A DNA stretch of 63,401 nucleotides, the filler included, from Chlamydiia bacterium (GTDB lineage: Bacteria > Chlamydiota > Chlamydiia > Chlamydiales > FEN-1388), in the NCBI GenBank assembly GCA_903848235.1. It is 3 parts of 3 records of this genome, joined end to end, with 100 filler letters (N's around TTAATTAATTAA, not from the genome) between each part and the next. Parts side by side here need not be neighbours in the genome. Positions count along the whole stretch, not along the records: positions 55,862 to 63,401 come from CAINFV010000185.1; 2 more parts are not named here. One strand, written 5' to 3'. The notes beneath the pieces were generated by a model. It searched no databases. It was given only the letters and a program-made list of their open reading frames with translations, and was not told where the DNA came from. Both the position numbers and the translations under genes were made by a program. Positions 52,696 through 60,558 of this stretch are shown one piece after another (position 1 is the stretch's first letter; the number at the start of each line of letters is the position of its first letter).

Positions 52696-53760
52696 ATGAT
52701 CATTACCGTTGACGGACCGGCAGGAACAGGCAAAAGTACTGTAGCACGGGAAGTGGCTCGCACACTCTCATACGCCTTCCTCGATACAGGAGCTCTCTAT
52801 AGAGCCGTCGCCTATGCCCTTATCGTCTTCAAAATCAATTTGTCGAATGAAAAGGCGATAGCAGAATTCCTCGATGCAAACCCTCTTGATATCCTCACCC
52901 AAGGACAAGAAACGCGATATGTGATCGCAGGAATTGACGTGACACCCCACATACGTACACGCGAGGCCAGCAATGCCTCTTCCCTCATCTCTACATATGC
53001 TGTTGTTCGCTCTTTCCTGCTTCCCATCCAACGAGGTTTTGCCTTTCACCAGAACATTGTCTGCGAAGGTCGAGACATGGGCACCACTGTCTTCCCGAAT
53101 GCTGAGGTGAAGATATTTTTGACAGCTCGGCCTGAAATACGCGCCCACCGGCGATTTCTAGAACTTCGCGGAACGACCTCAACTTCCTTCGAAGAGACCC
53201 AAAAAGAAATGTCAGAACGAGATCAAAGAGACTCTACACGGAGCATCTCCCCCCTCATGCAGCCTCACGATGCTTCTCTCATCGACACCTCAGACCTCTC
53301 CATCTTACAGGTCGTCGATAGAATCGTTGCCCTTGCACAGGCATTTCCTCATTGGGAACACTTCCAGCACCAGGCAGATATTGGAATACGAGGTATTGGC
53401 ACCACCATTGCAGAAGCTTTTGCACAGGCAGCTTTAGCGCTTACCGCCGTCATCACAGACCCATCATCCGTCACTCCAAAGACCTCTATTACCATTTCAG
53501 TCTCCGCAGAAGACCTCGACGCATTGCTCTTTGACTTCCTCAACCTTGTGATCTACGAGATGGAGACGCGCCATATGCTCTTCTCTCAGTTTGATATCAC
53601 CGTCACTGGATCACAGCTCAGAGCCACTCTCACTGGAGAGCCTGTCGACACATCAAAGCACCATCCTGCAGTGGAGGTCAAGGCAGCGACATACTATGAA
53701 CTTCTCGTCTGCCACCAGTCGAATGACTCATGGTGCGCTCAATGCGTTGTCGATGTGTAA
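52696..53760 (+). CDS. cmk: Cytidylate kinase fused to C-terminal archease domain
   Basis: Cmk: IITVDGPAGTGKST, LDTGALYR, EGRDMGT.VFP. Archease: WEHFQHQADIGIRG...EAFAQAA...EVKAATY...VVDV. Confidence 0.9.
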   Translation: MIITVDGPAGTGKSTVAREVARTLSYAFLDTGALYRAVAYALIVFKINLSNEKAIAEFLDANPLDILTQGQETRYVIAGIDVTPHIRTREASNASSLISTYAVVRSFLLPIQRGFAFHQNIVCEGRDMGTTVFPNAEVKIFLTARPEIRAHRRFLELRGTTSTSFEETQKEMSERDQRDSTRSISPLMQPHDASLIDTSDLSILQVVDRIVALAQAFPHWEHFQHQADIGIRGIGTTIAEAFAQAALALTAVITDPSSVTPKTSITISVSAEDLDALLFDFLNLVIYEMETRHMLFSQFDITVTGSQLRATLTGEPVDTSKHHPAVEVKAATYYELLVCHQSNDSWCAQCVVDV

Positions 53761-53769
53761 TACTGGACT

Positions 53770-55200
53770 TTAGCCTTTTATGCAGACCAGCGGCACAAGT
53801 TTTGCCACCTTCTTGGAAAGGCCCGCGGCATCCGCTGCTTCGACAACGGCACTGACATTCTTATAGGCGTCAGGCGCCTCTTCGGCGATCCCTCGATAGG
53901 ACTTACAACGGATGAGGATACCCTGTTTTTCAAGGTCAGACATGATCTGCCGACCCTCATACCGCTTTGTAGCTTGCGTCCGGCTCATTTGACGCCCTGC
54001 GCCATGGCATGAGGAGGAAAATGCTCGAGCCTCACTTTCGAGAGTCCCCGCAAGAATATAGGAAGCAGTGCCCATGGTGCCGCCGATGAGCACCGGCTGG
54101 CCAAAAGAGCGCAAAGACAATGGCAGCTCTAGATGACCCGGAGGAAGTGCCCGGGTGGCCCCTTTTCGATGGACAAAGAGCGTCATCTTCTTCCCGGCCA
54201 CTTCATGCTCTTCTTCAAGGCATGTGTTATGAGATACATCATAGAGCAACGACAGCTCTGCCTGTGGGAAGATGCGAGAAAAGGCCTTCCGTGTCAAATG
54301 AGTCAATATCTGCCGGTTGGCAAGAGCGCAGTTAATCGCAGCTCGCATCGCTCCCAGATATTCCTGCCCTGTTTGCGAGAGGATCGGCGCACAGGCAAGC
54401 TCTCGATCAGAGAGAGAAATCCCGTTTTCCTGGGCAGCAATAAGCATCTTCTTGGAGTAGTCAGTCGCTACCTGATGCCCTAAGCCGCGTGACCCGCAGT
54501 GAACACTGATGACAATTTCACCCTTCTTCAGGCCATATGCAGCAGCTAGCACATCGTCATAGATATCTTTGATCTCTTGGATCTCCAAGTAATGGTTTCC
54601 CGATCCTAGGGTCCCCATTTCATCGCGCTGCCTATTTTTCGCATAGTCTGAGACAGCGGCCGGGTCTGCGCCATTGGCCTTTCCATGCATCTCAATCCGC
54701 TCTAAATCCGCTTGTACACCATATCCGTGATGAACCGCCCACTCCGCACCCCCGGCGAGCACGGCGTCTATCTGGCAAGCGTCTAACACAAGCTCTCCAT
54801 GACTTCCAACGCCAGCGGGGATGATATGAAAAAGAGCGTCTGCAATTGCTCCCTTGTGGGGAGAAAACTCTTCCTTTGAAAGCCCTGTCACTATAGTCCT
54901 GACACCGCATGAGATGTCAAATCCAACACCTCCTGCAGAGACAACGCCTCCCTTCTGCGGGTCAAAGGCAGCCACGCCGCCGATAGGAAAGCCATACCCC
55001 CAATGAGCATCTGGCATCGCATATGATGCTTTGACAATGCCTGGCAGCGAGGCCACATTTGCTACCTGGTCGAAAACCTTGTCATCCATCTGAACTACAA
55101 GCTGTTCGTCCCCAAAGAGAATCCCTGGTACATGCATACCCCCTTGAGGCGCTATTCTCCACTCATATTCCGAAAGCTTCTCTAACTTCAACAGATCCAT
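53770..55200 (-). CDS. rtcB: RtcB RNA ligase (archaeal/archease-associated type)
   Basis: MPDAHWGYGFPIGG, GFDISCG, GSGNHYLE, HCGSRGLGH, HNT, HRKGAT, CHGAGR, EEAPDAYK. Confidence 0.96.
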   Translation of the reverse strand: MDLLKLEKLSEYEWRIAPQGGMHVPGILFGDEQLVVQMDDKVFDQVANVASLPGIVKASYAMPDAHWGYGFPIGGVAAFDPQKGGVVSAGGVGFDISCGVRTIVTGLSKEEFSPHKGAIADALFHIIPAGVGSHGELVLDACQIDAVLAGGAEWAVHHGYGVQADLERIEMHGKANGADPAAVSDYAKNRQRDEMGTLGSGNHYLEIQEIKDIYDDVLAAAYGLKKGEIVISVHCGSRGLGHQVATDYSKKMLIAAQENGISLSDRELACAPILSQTGQEYLGAMRAAINCALANRQILTHLTRKAFSRIFPQAELSLLYDVSHNTCLEEEHEVAGKKMTLFVHRKGATRALPPGHLELPLSLRSFGQPVLIGGTMGTASYILAGTLESEARAFSSSCHGAGRQMSRTQATKRYEGRQIMSDLEKQGILIRCKSYRGIAEEAPDAYKNVSAVVEAADAAGLSKKVAKLVPLVCIKG

Positions 55201-55761: not shown

Positions 55762-55861
55762 NNNNNNNNNNNNNNNNNNNNNNNNNNNNNNNNNNNNNNN
55801 NNNNNTTAATTAATTAANNNNNNNNNNNNNNNNNNNNNNNNNNNNNNNNNNNNNNNNNNNN
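55762..55861. other. Artificial contig linker
   Basis: N-run with central TTAATTAATTAA, 100 nt. Confidence 0.98.
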
Positions 55862-55990
55862 ATCTGTGCGCATCCCTCTGACAAACCCCGTGGGCTGTAC
55901 GGTGAAGTGGAAAGGACATGATGCTCACTGGATGCCAGATGATGCGTGCGACTTAGTACTGAAAAAAAAGTAAAACAAATACCGTCAGAT

Positions 55991-55999
55991 TGATACAAT
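55991..55999 (+). promoter_or_regulatory. Extended -10 promoter for Trp-leader/SSS1 transcript
   Basis: TGaTACAAT, 31 nt before the leader ATG. Confidence 0.5.
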
Positions 56000-56030
56000 G
56001 GGGCCAACTTTGCATTCGTAGGTTTTTTTC

Positions 56031-56087
56031 ATGTCCTCATCGAGGCTGTTTCACAGTTTCGTGTCCTTTCAATGGTGGCCCCGCTAG
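56031..56087 (+). CDS. Putative Trp-sensing leader peptide MSSSRLFHSFVSFQWWPR
   Basis: 18-aa uORF with tandem TGG TGG; stop at the loop/3' arm of hairpin 56075-56093; 75 nt before the SSS gene. Confidence 0.75.
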   Translation: MSSSRLFHSFVSFQWWPR

Positions 56088-56162
56088 GGCCATACCTTCT
56101 TTTTTCCCAACATTTTTATATTTCTTCTTCTAAAAACCCTGGTTTGAAAGGACAGGTATCCT

Positions 56163-57482
56163 ATGTGTTTACTTCCATTTTTTCTCGTCCTCATAGTCTC
56201 GATTGGCGCGAGCTATTTCGCCGCACAGAAAAAAGCTGACTACTTTTTAGCCAACCGCTCTCTTCAATGGCCAATGCTCCTCGGAACATTTCTTGGAGCT
56301 CAGATTGGGGGAGGGTTTATCCTTGGAAATACTGAAGTGTCGTTCCACCACGGCCTGTATGGCTCTATGTATGGCATAGGAATTGCTCTTGGCATGCTCT
56401 TGCTTGGCAGCGGCTTTGGGGCTAAGCTTCGCTCGTTGAACGTAGCGACATTGCCAGAAATGCTTCATCAGAAATACGGAAGCATAGCCTTCCAAAAAAT
56501 CGCTGCCATCGTGTCAATCCTCTCCTTGGCAGGAGGACTCATGTGCCAAGCCATAGGGCTGAAGATGTTTTTGGCCTCTCTTGGATTTGGCAGCCACCTC
56601 ATCTACTTTCTTGCATGGAATTGCGTCGTTCTCTACACGACCTATGGAGGCCTCCTTGCTGTCGTCTGGACGGACACAATTCAGGCAGTGATTATGATCA
56701 GCATGCTGGTGATCACCTGTGTCACGGCGTTGATGCCTCAGATGTCCACCATCATCGAGCAGACATCGCTGATGCCTCACGGACTGACAGGGCTGTCACT
56801 CTCTTCTCTTCTCTTTCCGCTGTGCTTTATTTTCGTCCAGCAGGACATGGCACAGCGCTGCTTTGCTGCCAAGACGCCAAAAGACGCTACCGTCAGCTGC
56901 CTTTTGACGGCTGCTGCCTTGATTGTCCTGTCTGCAATTCCTACCATGTGCGGCATCCTCGGAAAAGCGATGGGACTTATGCCTGGCAATGGCTCCATCT
57001 TCATGCAGGTGATGCAGAAGATTGCCCATCCAGCGGTATTCGTCATGGCAGGCTCCGCCGTGCTGCTCGCCATCATCTCGACAGCCTCTGCCATCTTGTT
57101 GGCCCTAAGCTCGAATGTTGCTCATGACATAACACGAAACCGGAATGCAGGGCATCTGACGACGTTGATCACGGGGCTTGTGGCAAGCTTCGGCCCTTTT
57201 TTCAGCGATGACATTATCGGAGGGCTCGTGGTGAGCTATGAGATTTCTGTAGGAGCGCTCTTCGTCCCGATCATCTGTGCAGTTCTGACACGGCGGGCAA
57301 GGCTCCCTAAGGAGGCGGCTATTGGAGCTGCACTTTTAGGATCGCTTGGAACCATCCTCTCGCAATGCTCCCAGATGAGCTTTCTTGGCCTTGCAGCGCC
57401 GTTTATTCTCTCTCCGACAGGCTTTGCTATCGGATGGCTCATCGCAAAGAAGAGGAAACCCGCCGTAGAGGTGTGCGGGTAA
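56163..57482 (+). CDS. Sodium:solute symporter (SSS) paralog 1, predicted Trp/aromatic importer
   Basis: DYFLANR, GGLLAVVWTDTIQ, QDMAQRCFAAK, AIISTAS; many TM segments. Confidence 0.9.
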   Translation: MCLLPFFLVLIVSIGASYFAAQKKADYFLANRSLQWPMLLGTFLGAQIGGGFILGNTEVSFHHGLYGSMYGIGIALGMLLLGSGFGAKLRSLNVATLPEMLHQKYGSIAFQKIAAIVSILSLAGGLMCQAIGLKMFLASLGFGSHLIYFLAWNCVVLYTTYGGLLAVVWTDTIQAVIMISMLVITCVTALMPQMSTIIEQTSLMPHGLTGLSLSSLLFPLCFIFVQQDMAQRCFAAKTPKDATVSCLLTAAALIVLSAIPTMCGILGKAMGLMPGNGSIFMQVMQKIAHPAVFVMAGSAVLLAIISTASAILLALSSNVAHDITRNRNAGHLTTLITGLVASFGPFFSDDIIGGLVVSYEISVGALFVPIICAVLTRRARLPKEAAIGAALLGSLGTILSQCSQMSFLGLAAPFILSPTGFAIGWLIAKKRKPAVEVCG

Positions 57483-57616
57483 CTATTTGGTGGTGAGTGG
57501 TATACCTCTTCTCCCGCTCACCATAATGTGCAAGCCTCGAATCGTTGTTTTTAAACCTCGTTGCGCGTAACATATTAGAGTCTAATTATTGCCTAAAAGA
57601 ATCTGAGGAGGCTTCT

Positions 57617-58474
57617 ATGCGGTTTTTCCTCGCTATCCTGTGTTCCCTCTCTTGTCTTGCAACACTTTTCCCAACACAGAGCCCGAGTCGTCTGGAGGAA
57701 GCGAATACCGACTTTGTAGAATTGAATTTCGTCGTAGACGAAACTGTTTTAATCACCACTCTTGTTTTTGCACCCAATAGTGCCCGATTCCACCCCGCTA
57801 TCGTCGAATTTCAAAAGCACATGTTCGATGCCTGCAAAGAGGAGTGCTTGCTCATAGCCCCGTTGGTAGAACAGAAGTATTTTCTCCCAGAATGGGCCGC
57901 TCTTGACTACAAGGATAAGGAGCCATACAAGAAGTGCTTCGACAAGCTTGTATGCGAGGCAAAGAAGACGGCTCAGTATCCCATTCTGTTAACACAGACG
58001 AAGCAACGGTTGGCAGAATGTAGAGATCAGTGGAGGAGAAATTACGAAACGACCTTTGCCTTCATGAAAGGGATCACAGGCATTCCGTTTCGCCACTCTT
58101 TTTCTATCTATATTATCCACCCAGGAATCCCTTCAGGATGCAACATGACAGAGAGAAGAATCTGCTGGGGAGGAGAAGAGAAAAAGAAAAACTGGACCAC
58201 GGTCTACCTTTGGCACGAAATTTTACATTCTTATCTAATCGACCCTACATACCTAGGTCACGCTCTCATCGAGATTGCAACCGACAATGAGCTTCGACAC
58301 CTGATCAATGGCAGGAATGACCCGGAGTGGGGCGGGCATGAAGAGTGCAGTGAGATAAAGAAACTCATAGCCTCTGACTGGAAAGCGTATATCGCCTCGC
58401 CAAAGAAAAACATCGTAGAGTTCTATCAGGAATTATGCAAAAAATACCCAGCTGAACGATATCCCGATGAATAA
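57617..58474 (+). CDS. Secreted hypothetical protein with HExxH motif
   Basis: GAGGAG RBS, signal peptide, LWHEILH...HALIE. Confidence 0.7.
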   Translation: MRFFLAILCSLSCLATLFPTQSPSRLEEANTDFVELNFVVDETVLITTLVFAPNSARFHPAIVEFQKHMFDACKEECLLIAPLVEQKYFLPEWAALDYKDKEPYKKCFDKLVCEAKKTAQYPILLTQTKQRLAECRDQWRRNYETTFAFMKGITGIPFRHSFSIYIIHPGIPSGCNMTERRICWGGEEKKKNWTTVYLWHEILHSYLIDPTYLGHALIEIATDNELRHLINGRNDPEWGGHEECSEIKKLIASDWKAYIASPKKNIVEFYQELCKKYPAERYPDE

Positions 58475-58487
58475 ACCATATTGTCAA

Positions 58488-58516
58488 TTCACAACAATTA
58501 AAGAACATGGTACAAT
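58488..58516 (+). promoter_or_regulatory. Sigma66/70-type promoter for His-leader/SSS2 transcript
   Basis: TTCACA-17 nt-TACAAT with extended TG. Confidence 0.6.
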
Positions 58517-58548
58517 AAGGCTCATCAACGAGGATGCATAGTTTCAAA

Positions 58549-58602
58549 ATGAGAAAAGATTCTTCTTTCTCACATCTGTCCCATCTCCACCATCGACCGT
58601 AA
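58549..58602 (+). CDS. Putative His-sensing leader peptide MRKDSSFSHLSHLHHRP (alternative in-frame start 58534 adds MHSFK)
   Basis: 4 His codons in the last 9; stop in the GTAA loop of ATCGACC/GGTCGAT hairpin; 72 nt before the SSS gene. Confidence 0.75.
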   Translation: MRKDSSFSHLSHLHHRP

Positions 58603-58674
58603 GGTCGATCATTTCTGTATTTTCTCTTCAGCTTTTATTCACATCACAAAAAACGTAACTAGCGTGGAGATGCT

Positions 58675-59997
58675 ATGATTCTCATTCCTTTTATCATTGT
58701 TCTAGTCGTCTCAGTAGGCGCCAGCTTTTTCGCCTCGAAAAAAGAGGGCGATTTTTTCTTGGCCAGCCGGTCGATTCGCTGGCCGTTGTTACTTGGCACT
58801 TTCGTAGGAACGCAAGTCGGTGGAGGGTTTATCCTCGGCAATACCGATGCTTCGTGGAAGCTTGGGGCTTTCGGCTCACTCTACGGCGTTGGCCTCGCTC
58901 TTGGCATGCTTGGCCTTGGCCTCGGCTATGGCGCTCGCCTTCGGAAGCTTGGTGTAGCAACACTTCCAGGGTTACTCGAACAGCGCTATGACAGCCCGCT
59001 GCTCAAAAAAGCCGCTGCCCTTTTATCAATCCTCTCCCTCGGCGGCATTCTCATGTGCCAGGCCATTGGACTGAAGAAGTTCCTATGTTCGATGGGCTTT
59101 ACAAGCGAGTGGATCTATCTTCTCTCATGGGGAGTTGTCGTCTTTTATACCACATGCGGCGGGCTGCTCGCCGTCGTATGGACTGATGTCATCCAAGCTG
59201 TCGTCATGGTAGTCATGCTTGCCATCACGTTCTTCAGCGCTCTCCTTCCCCAATGGCCTGTGATTTCCACCCAGATGACATCAATGGGATATGGCATCGA
59301 TGGCAGTATCCTCGCCTCATTGGTCATTCCATTCTGTTTTATCTTCATAGAGCAGGACATGGCTCAGCGGTGCTTTGCGGCAAAAACGCCACAAGACGCC
59401 ACCAAAGGGTGCCTATACACAGCCGTCATCCTCATACTCCTCAGCGTAATCCCAACACTCTGCGGTATCTTGGGCAGAGCTATGAACCTCTCTCCTGAGA
59501 ATGGTTCGATTTTCATGCAGGTGATGAGGCAAGCGTCCAATCCCTTTGTCTTTGTCATGGCCTCTTCGGCGGTCTTATTAGCGATCATTTCAACGGCATC
59601 CGCCATTCTCCTCGCACTTAGTTCAAATGCAGCTCAAGATATGAGTCTCAGCCAGAAAAAAGGTCGGCTGATCACTCTTATCATTGGAAGCGGGGCTCTT
59701 CTTGGGCCCTATCTAGGAAGCGACATCATCACGTGGATGGTAGGAAGCTATGAGATCTCCGTAGGAGCGCTTTTTATCCCTATCGTCTGTGCCGTATTCA
59801 CAAAGAAGGCTACGCTGCCGCTGCAAGCAGCATGGGGAGCAGCTCTCTTAGGCTCAGCTGGCACCGTCATTGCACAACAGCTGTCAACCTCTCTTATAGG
59901 AGTAGCCATTCCCTTTATCCTATCGGCCTTAGGATTTGCGATTGGGTGGGGAGTCTTCAAGATACAGGATAGAAGATGTATTCCTAACCGTTGCTAA
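58675..59997 (+). CDS. Sodium:solute symporter (SSS) paralog 2, predicted His importer
   Basis: Colinear paralog of 56163-57482 with the same motifs; GGAG RBS. Confidence 0.9.
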   Translation: MILIPFIIVLVVSVGASFFASKKEGDFFLASRSIRWPLLLGTFVGTQVGGGFILGNTDASWKLGAFGSLYGVGLALGMLGLGLGYGARLRKLGVATLPGLLEQRYDSPLLKKAAALLSILSLGGILMCQAIGLKKFLCSMGFTSEWIYLLSWGVVVFYTTCGGLLAVVWTDVIQAVVMVVMLAITFFSALLPQWPVISTQMTSMGYGIDGSILASLVIPFCFIFIEQDMAQRCFAAKTPQDATKGCLYTAVILILLSVIPTLCGILGRAMNLSPENGSIFMQVMRQASNPFVFVMASSAVLLAIISTASAILLALSSNAAQDMSLSQKKGRLITLIIGSGALLGPYLGSDIITWMVGSYEISVGALFIPIVCAVFTKKATLPLQAAWGAALLGSAGTVIAQQLSTSLIGVAIPFILSALGFAIGWGVFKIQDRRCIPNRC

Positions 59998-60132: not shown

Positions 60133-60558
60133 ATGAACCGAGTCATTACAACAATTGCCATAACAATTCTTTTGTCACTCGTGGCCAGTCTTCCAGTTAG
60201 AATTCTTACGGCACAAGATGGGGATACCTCTCAATCATCACCATATTCAAGTCTGCAGGAAATTCCTTCTGACGTACCTGCGAATCCCTACAACAACTAT
60301 CCCTTCTTCAACAATCCATACCCAGACTACAATAACTATCCCGGATACTCCGGTGGATATTACAATGGATACTCAAACTACAACAACAGACCACAGAACT
60401 ACTACAACTCATACCAAAATAGATATTATCAAAACCGTCAAAGACCATCAAATTACTCAAATCCACAGTATCGTAATAATGGTCCCTATTCAGGGCAAAG
60501 AAGGGATGGGGCCTATGGTGGCGAACGCGGGGAAAGAGGAGACCGCGGGGGACGATAA
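60133..60558 (+). CDS. Secreted low-complexity N/Y/Q/P-rich protein with RGG-like tail
   Basis: GGAGG RBS, signal peptide, YNN/NPY repeats, GERGERGDRGGR C-terminus. Confidence 0.75.
   Translation: MNRVITTIAITILLSLVASLPVRILTAQDGDTSQSSPYSSLQEIPSDVPANPYNNYPFFNNPYPDYNNYPGYSGGYYNGYSNYNNRPQNYYNSYQNRYYQNRQRPSNYSNPQYRNNGPYSGQRRDGAYGGERGERGDRGGR

Follow-up and report, generated by a model that had tools for sequence, protein, structure and literature searches.

Predicted histidine- and tryptophan-sensing leader peptides upstream of duplicated SSS transporter genes in Chlamydiota

The window, a stretch of 63,401 nt (filler included) joined from three parts of the Chlamydiia bacterium assembly GCA_903848235.1 (genome G000 in this report), contains two paralogous SSS transporter genes. 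Each is preceded by a short upstream open reading frame (uORF) that ends close behind tandem tryptophan or histidine codons. One 7540-bp contig, CAINFV010000185.1 (C185), carries the whole locus. The two proteins, SSS1 and SSS2, are 63% identical, and a tblastn search of the genome gave no further match at E ≤ 1e-3. They belong to the SSS/SLC5 family according to Pfam SSF scores of 90 and 69 bits for the pair (cut-off 22.8), and an AlphaFold model (pLDDT 85) matches the SLC5 structures of CHT1, SGLT and SiaT with TM-scores of up to 0.83. Structure comparison found no solved close relative. In NCBIfam, the proteins score below the cut-off of TIGR00813 and below those of the panF (46–47, cut-off 328) and PutP (38–67, cut-off 515.5) equivalogs. 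The features of the locus are listed below; SD stands for Shine-Dalgarno and MFE for minimum free energy.

55991–55999, plus strand: extended −10-like promoter motif TGnTACAAT, Trp copy
56031–56087, plus strand: Trp leader uORF1, 18 aa, ending WW-PR-stop; Trp codons at 56073–56078; 75 nt to the SSS1 ATG
56062–56072, plus strand: anti-SD arm bordering the Trp codons on their 5′ side, perfectly paired over 11 bp with 56144–56154 in the MFE and centroid folds, z −3.25
56075–56093, plus strand: 7-bp hairpin over the Trp codons and the stop, predicted by folding
56092–56140, plus strand: G-free pyrimidine spacer of the Trp copy, rut-like and looped out; 0 G in 49 nt
56144–56154, plus strand: SSS1 SD region, partner of the anti-SD arm on folding through the start codon
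56163–57482, plus strand: SSS1, predicted Trp importer, apparently the derived paralog; 439 aa with 8 His and 4 Trp; A46, G125, Q226
58508–58516, plus strand: extended −10-like promoter motif TGnTACAAT, His copy
58549–58602, plus strand: His leader uORF2, 17 aa (22 aa from the ATG at 58534), ending HH-RP-stop; 72 nt to the SSS2 ATG
58582–58590, plus strand: anti-SD arm made up of the codons for His-Leu-His, perfectly paired over 9 bp with 58664–58672 in the MFE and centroid folds, z −3.68
58592–58609, plus strand: 7-bp hairpin of the His copy with the stop in its loop, predicted by folding
58610–58660, plus strand: G-poor pyrimidine spacer, His copy; 3 G in 51 nt
58664–58672, plus strand: SSS2 SD region, partner of the anti-SD arm on folding through the start codon
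58675–59997, plus strand: SSS2, predicted His importer of the ancestral type; 440 aa with 0 His and 9 Trp

All elements of the shared layout that the first-pass annotation had described (promoters, uORFs, control codons, hairpins, spacers and the 75- and 72-nt distances) are present. The promoter motif occurs 70 times in the 4.7-Mb genome, which corresponds to ~0.0007 per 50-nt window. Upstream of the 1693 open reading frames called in G000 by a custom script, there is one uORF of the form WW-nn-stop and one of the form HH-nn-stop, namely uORF1 and uORF2. The latter has His codons at 58573, 58582, 58588 and 58591, i.e. two beyond the HH pair. An Rfam scan placed no family at the leaders and gave a single chance match elsewhere.

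Two parts of this layout do not extend beyond the locus. The control codons lie exactly two codons before the stop in both window leaders, but in only 28 of 69 orthologous His leaders; in 24 of the 69 this distance is zero. The 7-bp hairpin at the stop, previously taken as the switch, exists in both window copies, where it is significant in the His copy (z −3.3) and, taken alone, not significant in the Trp copy (z −1.3). Only 21 of the 69 orthologous leaders have such a hairpin at ≤−5 kcal/mol, and it was rejected as a universal switch. The paired SD regions of both window copies point to translational attenuation instead.

These leader/SD duplexes became apparent when the fold was extended through the start codon; a shorter fold did not reveal them. 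The Trp and His duplexes have no sequence in common. Ranked by perfect pairs, 11 bp are reached in one and 9 bp in 12 of 1691 ribosome-binding-site (RBS) windows of the genome. Pairing between leader and RBS that involves or adjoins the control codons is found in both window copies, in the related genomes G001 and G003 and in a subset of leaders phylum-wide. The His duplex is kept in G001 and in G003, the latter with alterations on both sides. In a related Logan contig, a change on the SD side of the Trp duplex preserves a U-G pair and another change breaks the terminal pair. Across the phylum, leaders pair better with their own RBS than with swapped ones (p = 0.0002, within families p = 0.0065, n = 88; GC-matched p ≤ 0.0012, n = 86), although the relatives are not independent and the p-values of these phylum-wide tests overstate the significance. 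At least eight perfect pairs occur in 8 of 86 leaders, with 2.6 expected. Blocking the His codons makes the RBS easier to open by 2.0 kcal/mol, and a control block by only 0.3 kcal/mol (n = 77, p = 1e-8); equilibrium models of stalling give a gain at the RBS of SSS2 of 3.3–4.7 kcal/mol.

The survey of orthologs proposed in the first-pass annotation found that 16 of 22 families have conserved uORFs ahead of their SSS genes. SSS homologs (E ≤ 1e-20) are present in 152 of 400 genomes. The leader set consists of 152 genes, including nine distant paralogs and the window pair; four of 156 rows with short upstream DNA were dropped and 26 further homolog matches (13 listed, 13 unlisted) were left out. 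An ATG-initiated uORF with at least three His among its final 12 codons precedes 71 of the 152 genes, compared with 0–5 in 20 dinucleotide shuffles and one on the reverse strand; the Trp version of this rule gave 0/152. Two loci (L167 and L168) have one common leader-like sequence that is probably due to chance. They are counted in the 71 and in the n = 88 tests and excluded from the later pairing and opening tests. Among further named, non-redundant Chlamydiota loci, 16 of 28 have a His leader.

A cluster of His codons is found in 88 of 142 orthologs. An upstream ATG together with a stop within six codons is present 69 times in the His frame and twice in each of the other frames. In these 69 leaders the final His is 0–2 codons from the stop in 59 cases. 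In the small-genome family f22, 11 of 13 genes have kept a uORF of 29–33 aa in which a His stands three codons ahead of the stop; in most of them it is the only His. In G001 the final 12 leader codons and the stop are identical in DNA to those of uORF2, without a synonymous change. As the third positions of the coding sequence are only 51% identical, the leader is presumably constrained at the RNA level. An amino-acid-sensing leader, claimed beforehand for this locus, thus holds up well for histidine, and the distribution strongly supports an ancient Chlamydiota element that appears ancestral and widespread.

Several observations accompany this distribution. The leader is lost group-wide in genus g7 (L005, L007, L009, L010, L014, L016 and L017) and in family f21, where some His is regained in the protein. 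His leaders of all loci use CAT 312 times and CAC 49 times, which exceeds the 62% found genome-wide in G000, whose usage served for comparison. The leaders L282 and L287 group with environmental genomes of family f39; the "Chlamydia trachomatis" titles of these metagenome-assembled genomes are probably loose. The SSS gene itself is patchily distributed over the Chlamydiota, in agreement with the mention of a "PanF homolog" in former Chlamydophila species (PMC3459881). For the "putative proline permease" CPn0486 of C. pneumoniae, assumed here to be an ortholog, a start site was mapped 162 nt 5′ of the annotated start (PMC3333780). This leaves enough room for a leader.

Histidine as the substrate is suggested by the metabolism and the composition of the proteins. 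A search of 61 chlamydial genomes found no HisD, so chlamydiae must import histidine. Proteins tend to be depleted in the amino acid that they procure. SSS2 is the sole His-free protein among 38 hydrophobic membrane proteins of G000 (background 1.57%, P = 0.001), and the mean His content is 0.25% in orthologs with a leader and 0.43% in those without. Furthermore, the SSS domain of CbrA carries histidine (PMC13488458). The His depletion of the leader-bearing transporters suggests that the genes named PanF or proline permease (one homolog carries the source name panF) probably encode histidine importers. Histidine import by SSS2-type transporters is very likely on these grounds.

For SSS1, the tree places the protein within a 16-protein clade that branches inside family f1 next to the SSS2 clade, with moderate support for the deep nodes. 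The gene 5′ of SSS1 and the methyltransferase gene 3′ of SSS2 border single SSS copies in relatives, which fits a tandem duplication. Judged from the sequences, SSS1 is a local, derived duplicate and the Trp type descends from an ancestral His type. The symmetric co-divergence into a Trp and a His importer that had been proposed is therefore replaced by a one-sided change. The compositions of the two clades do not overlap: proteins of the SSS1 clade have 4–12 His and 3–6 Trp (n = 16), those of the SSS2 clade 0–2 His and 8–11 Trp (n = 15).

The substitutions T46A, I125G and E226Q are fixed in all 16 SSS1-clade proteins. Among 64 proteins with a His leader from other families, the same positions are occupied by Thr (91%), Ile (88%) and Glu (97%). 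According to a hidden Markov model (HMM) alignment to human SGLT1, which served to define the pocket positions, they correspond to S77, T156 and D294. S77 and N78 of SGLT1 are near the sugar site, and T156 and D294 are not mentioned in the available part of that paper (PMC10203128). By inference, positions 125 and 226 are core-helix positions. A smaller residue and the loss of an acid would suit indole over imidazole.

The Trp leader itself is represented outside G000 by partial contigs. A Logan contig covering 56005–56427 differs at 28 positions and by two indels, which both fall outside uORF1. Of the changes displayed in uORF1, two are synonymous and two conservative; five differences are not displayed. 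Two more Logan contigs align only at 56019–56105 and 56054–56093 and have unlike flanks. Equal lengths of the longest contigs suggest that two further assemblies hold pairs of a His-type and a Trp-type gene. A family search added no Trp-type SSS gene, a scan of viral sequences gave no match, and a metagenome scan returned, among the matches listed, distant SSS genes only (22–33% identity) and no DNA of the Trp clade; a search of 1.84 billion representatives supplied no genomic context. Together with clade composition and the fixed substitutions, the contigs lend indirect support to the Trp half of the sensing claim. That uORF1 senses Trp is considered likely; Trp import by SSS1, with TrpA not found in G000, is probable with somewhat less confidence.

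A real His system next to a WW uORF that is a decayed copy or a coincidence, with SSS1 transporting another substrate or lacking Trp regulation, would account for the want of a second complete Trp leader among the loci examined, for the insignificant Trp hairpin and for the weak modelled switch of SSS1. Other intergenic W-containing uORFs do arise by chance in G000. Such a coincidence is nevertheless quite improbable: it would have to produce the only WW-nn-stop uORF of the genome, an 11-bp anti-SD match unique among 1691 windows, a leader that stands out as an island of similarity between unlike flanks in two Logan contigs and is spared by the indels of a third, and the reciprocal His/Trp shift in 16 proteins.

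In the proposed mechanism, each transporter mRNA would open with a short uORF that gauges charged tRNA. With ample amino acid, the ribosome would finish the uORF and depart, and the freed leader would pair with the SD region of the transporter gene and block initiation; the untranslated C-rich, G-poor RNA would probably recruit Rho as well. Under a shortage of His (for SSS2) or Trp (for SSS1), the ribosome would wait on the control codons and cover both the pairing arm and the rut-like tract, so that the importer would be made. Tandem duplication in the SSS1 lineage would have given a copy in which the transporter core shifted toward Trp along with the control codons, the pairing arm and its SD partner. 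This SD sequestration with an ancestral His leader and a Trp-retuned duplicate is given a probability of roughly 60%.

The same sensing could act mainly through Rho-dependent termination, with the stalled ribosome shielding a rut site in the 3′ half of the uORF and the spacer and with the SD duplexes being secondary. Around the His run of the 69 leaders G drops to 4–11% and C climbs to 30–38%, and (C−G)/length is 0.20 in leaders compared with 0.02 in leaderless upstream DNA. The median gap between leader and gene is 100 nt, and there is no common hairpin. The earlier view that a classical antiterminator is missing agrees with the terminator-like sites, which are weak, occur in 12 of 69 leaders and are absent from the His leader of the window. 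A rho gene was found in G000, and polarity by chlamydial Rho has been described (PMC7755916). The C-richness is partly a by-product of His, Ser and Phe codons, however, and perfect duplexes of unrelated sequence as well as the excess of cognate pairing would be unneeded if Rho were the main output. That reading is rather unlikely. The masking of a rut site by a stalled ribosome, suggested from the start, remains plausible as a parallel route, given the rho gene and the unstructured tract with C exceeding G at the end of the uORF. Rho action and SD sequestration are compatible, and Rho may dominate where SD pairing is weak. Most likely, the window locus uses SD sequestration with Rho acting on RNA left untranslated, and many orthologs depend on Rho alone.

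It is very improbable that the nascent peptide senses the free amino acid in the tunnel, as TnaC and SpeFL do, or binds the transporter as CbrX does. The short fixed distance to the stop, the frequent C-termini HSC, HxAH and HRP, and the binding of CbrX to the His-transporting CbrA (PMC13488458) would fit such a peptide. Its length, however, varies from 17 to ~50 aa and conserved sequence is limited to the His run; the leaders share only this run and a Ser/Leu/Phe-rich run-up, unlike the conserved peptides of TnaC and SpeFL. Moreover, arrest by abundant ligand would induce an auxotroph's importer at the time of least need.

Several results weigh against SD sequestration with a Trp-retuned duplicate. 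By duplex energy, 73 and 157 of the 1691 RBS windows equal the window pairs, and the swapped combinations give −16.6 and −15.9. Strong SD pairing is confined to a subset, half of the leaders pairing weakly; the median duplex is −7.0 for cognate and −6.9 for swapped pairs, and blocking yields a gain of at least 4 kcal/mol in only 21 of 80 leaders. In equilibrium models, stalling on the Trp codons frees the RBS of SSS1 by only 0.5–2.6 kcal/mol because the post-stop tract (altered in the related Logan contig) can re-pair with the RBS, which opens further with a ribosome at the stop than with one on the Trp codons. About half of the SSS homologs have no leader. The Trp depletion of SSS1 itself is weak (P = 0.09) and G000 already has a TyrP-family permease. 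T46 and E226 are not constant among His-leader proteins, and the combination of G125 and Q226 recurs in one protein outside the SSS1 clade (P0108, the only other among 287 sequences). The conservation of the Trp leader consists of partial contig alignments with some differences undisplayed, the complete leader being found in this genome only. No Trp-type leader turned up at the 152 + 28 other loci examined; the sole candidate, the Trp-rich frame at L299, was rejected since it sits within a 175-aa gene in a different frame.

Related modules may exist beyond this pair. A third paralog clade (P0016–18, P0021, P0025, P0026, P0029, P0034, P0037, P0038, P0041, P0053 and P0055) has the substitutions Q47H, E226T, F222Y and Y359N and ~1% Tyr compared with ~2%; it possibly comprises Tyr importers. 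The contig of its member P0034 has the same length as that of the His-type P0003. Two apparent Tyr leaders in G000 were rejected; they precede a gene that by eye probably encodes an ATP synthase subunit E-like protein and a probable antisense frame. At L330 (G000 contig C57, 9396–10721, minus strand), an intergenic uORF ends in an Asn/Gln run 60 nt upstream of a Na+/alanine-symporter (AGCS) gene. Such leaders occur at 3 of 18 AGCS loci (G000, G007 and G100), with a shuffle mean of 0.08. In chlamydiae both Asn and Gln tRNAs depend on transamidation, and for this reason the AGCS leader may sense glutamine.

If the His leader (16 of 22 families, with just one His codon left in the majority of small-genome members) acts as predicted, it would be a phylum-wide cis-acting amino-acid sensor, and a gene apparently known in the literature as a PanF homolog or proline permease would gain a specific predicted substrate. 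The duplicate would be a natural experiment in which sensor codons, RNA duplex and transporter pocket changed together. The general form of this proposal is tentative, with odds below even: Chlamydiota would place ribosome-read leaders, free of transcription factors, on amino-acid importers and, in one family, retarget the leader-importer module by duplication, now to Trp and by prediction to Tyr, with T46A/I125G/E226Q converting a His into a Trp importer and the leaders being a code by which orphan transporters in intracellular bacteria could be given substrates.

Between the copies lies one further gene:

57617–58474, plus strand: unrelated gene, 285 aa, no Pfam or NCBIfam match, HExxH-like motif

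Its product has a hydrophobic N-terminal stretch, its Atlas neighbours (at 0.92–0.94) are unnamed clusters of 53–72 members, and the gene was not found at the related loci searched. The frame at 60133–60558 (141 aa) begins with a signal-like stretch, is otherwise of low complexity and rich in Tyr, Asn and Gln, and matches no family. At 52696–55200 a cytidylate kinase is fused with an archease domain, convergent with rtcB. Positions 55762–55862 form an N-filled join of contigs, and the opening bases of C185 also match contig C238.

Like hisL and trpL, including the His leaders of Firmicutes (PMC9413887, PMC2965389), the chlamydial leaders have tandem cognate codons for sensing charged tRNA, under selection phylum-wide for His and seen in one genome and partial contigs for Trp. 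They differ in having no conserved terminator or antiterminator and no Rfam match, and in targeting an SSS gene. The mycobacterial polycysteine attenuators (bioRxiv 10.1101/834739) likewise have control codons near the uORF stop, no terminator, and stalling that blocks an RBS-sequestering structure; the present leaders concern His and Trp, lie on leadered mRNAs for an auxotroph's importer in another phylum, and are known from sequence. The control-codon run of the actinobacterial LEU element pairs directly with the SD box, as here, and actinobacterial cys leaders lacking a terminator were proposed to act via Rho (PMC1262725). The chlamydial leaders show neither the pseudoknot nor a conserved RNA motif of the LEU element, for which the same paper doubts that the Leu codons regulate. 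In tnaC, speFL, cruR and mgtL (PMC12360218), ribosome position near the uORF stop also governs a C-rich, G-poor tract before a transporter gene. Those leaders sense a ligand via the peptide or Mg-linked translation, whereas runs of cognate codons with low peptide conservation are found here; the likeness to cruR and tnaC is limited to geometry.

The SLC5 domain of Pseudomonas CbrA (PMC13488458) shows that an SSS fold can bind and transport histidine and has a short ORF upstream. It is part of a sensor-kinase fusion, and CbrX is a bound membrane peptide. The annotations of the chlamydial gene as PanF or PutP (PMC3459881, PMC5723314) have the superfamily in common with the present assignment; the scores are far under the cut-offs, and leader and composition indicate His.

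In chlamydiae, candidate trpL peptides were reported for C. felis and C. trachomatis (PMC3937554), C. trachomatis is said to lack TrpL-mediated attenuation with a putative leader unvalidated (PMC7755916), and almost no predicted attenuator has an assigned function (PMC2965389). The supplements of PMC4833913 and PMC2965389 may list chlamydial His uORFs. The literature searched, which covers few subscription journals and includes parts of PMC4833913 and PMC6171736, describes neither a His leader nor an SSS gene under leader control for chlamydiae, in line with the initial impression that such a pair was undescribed.

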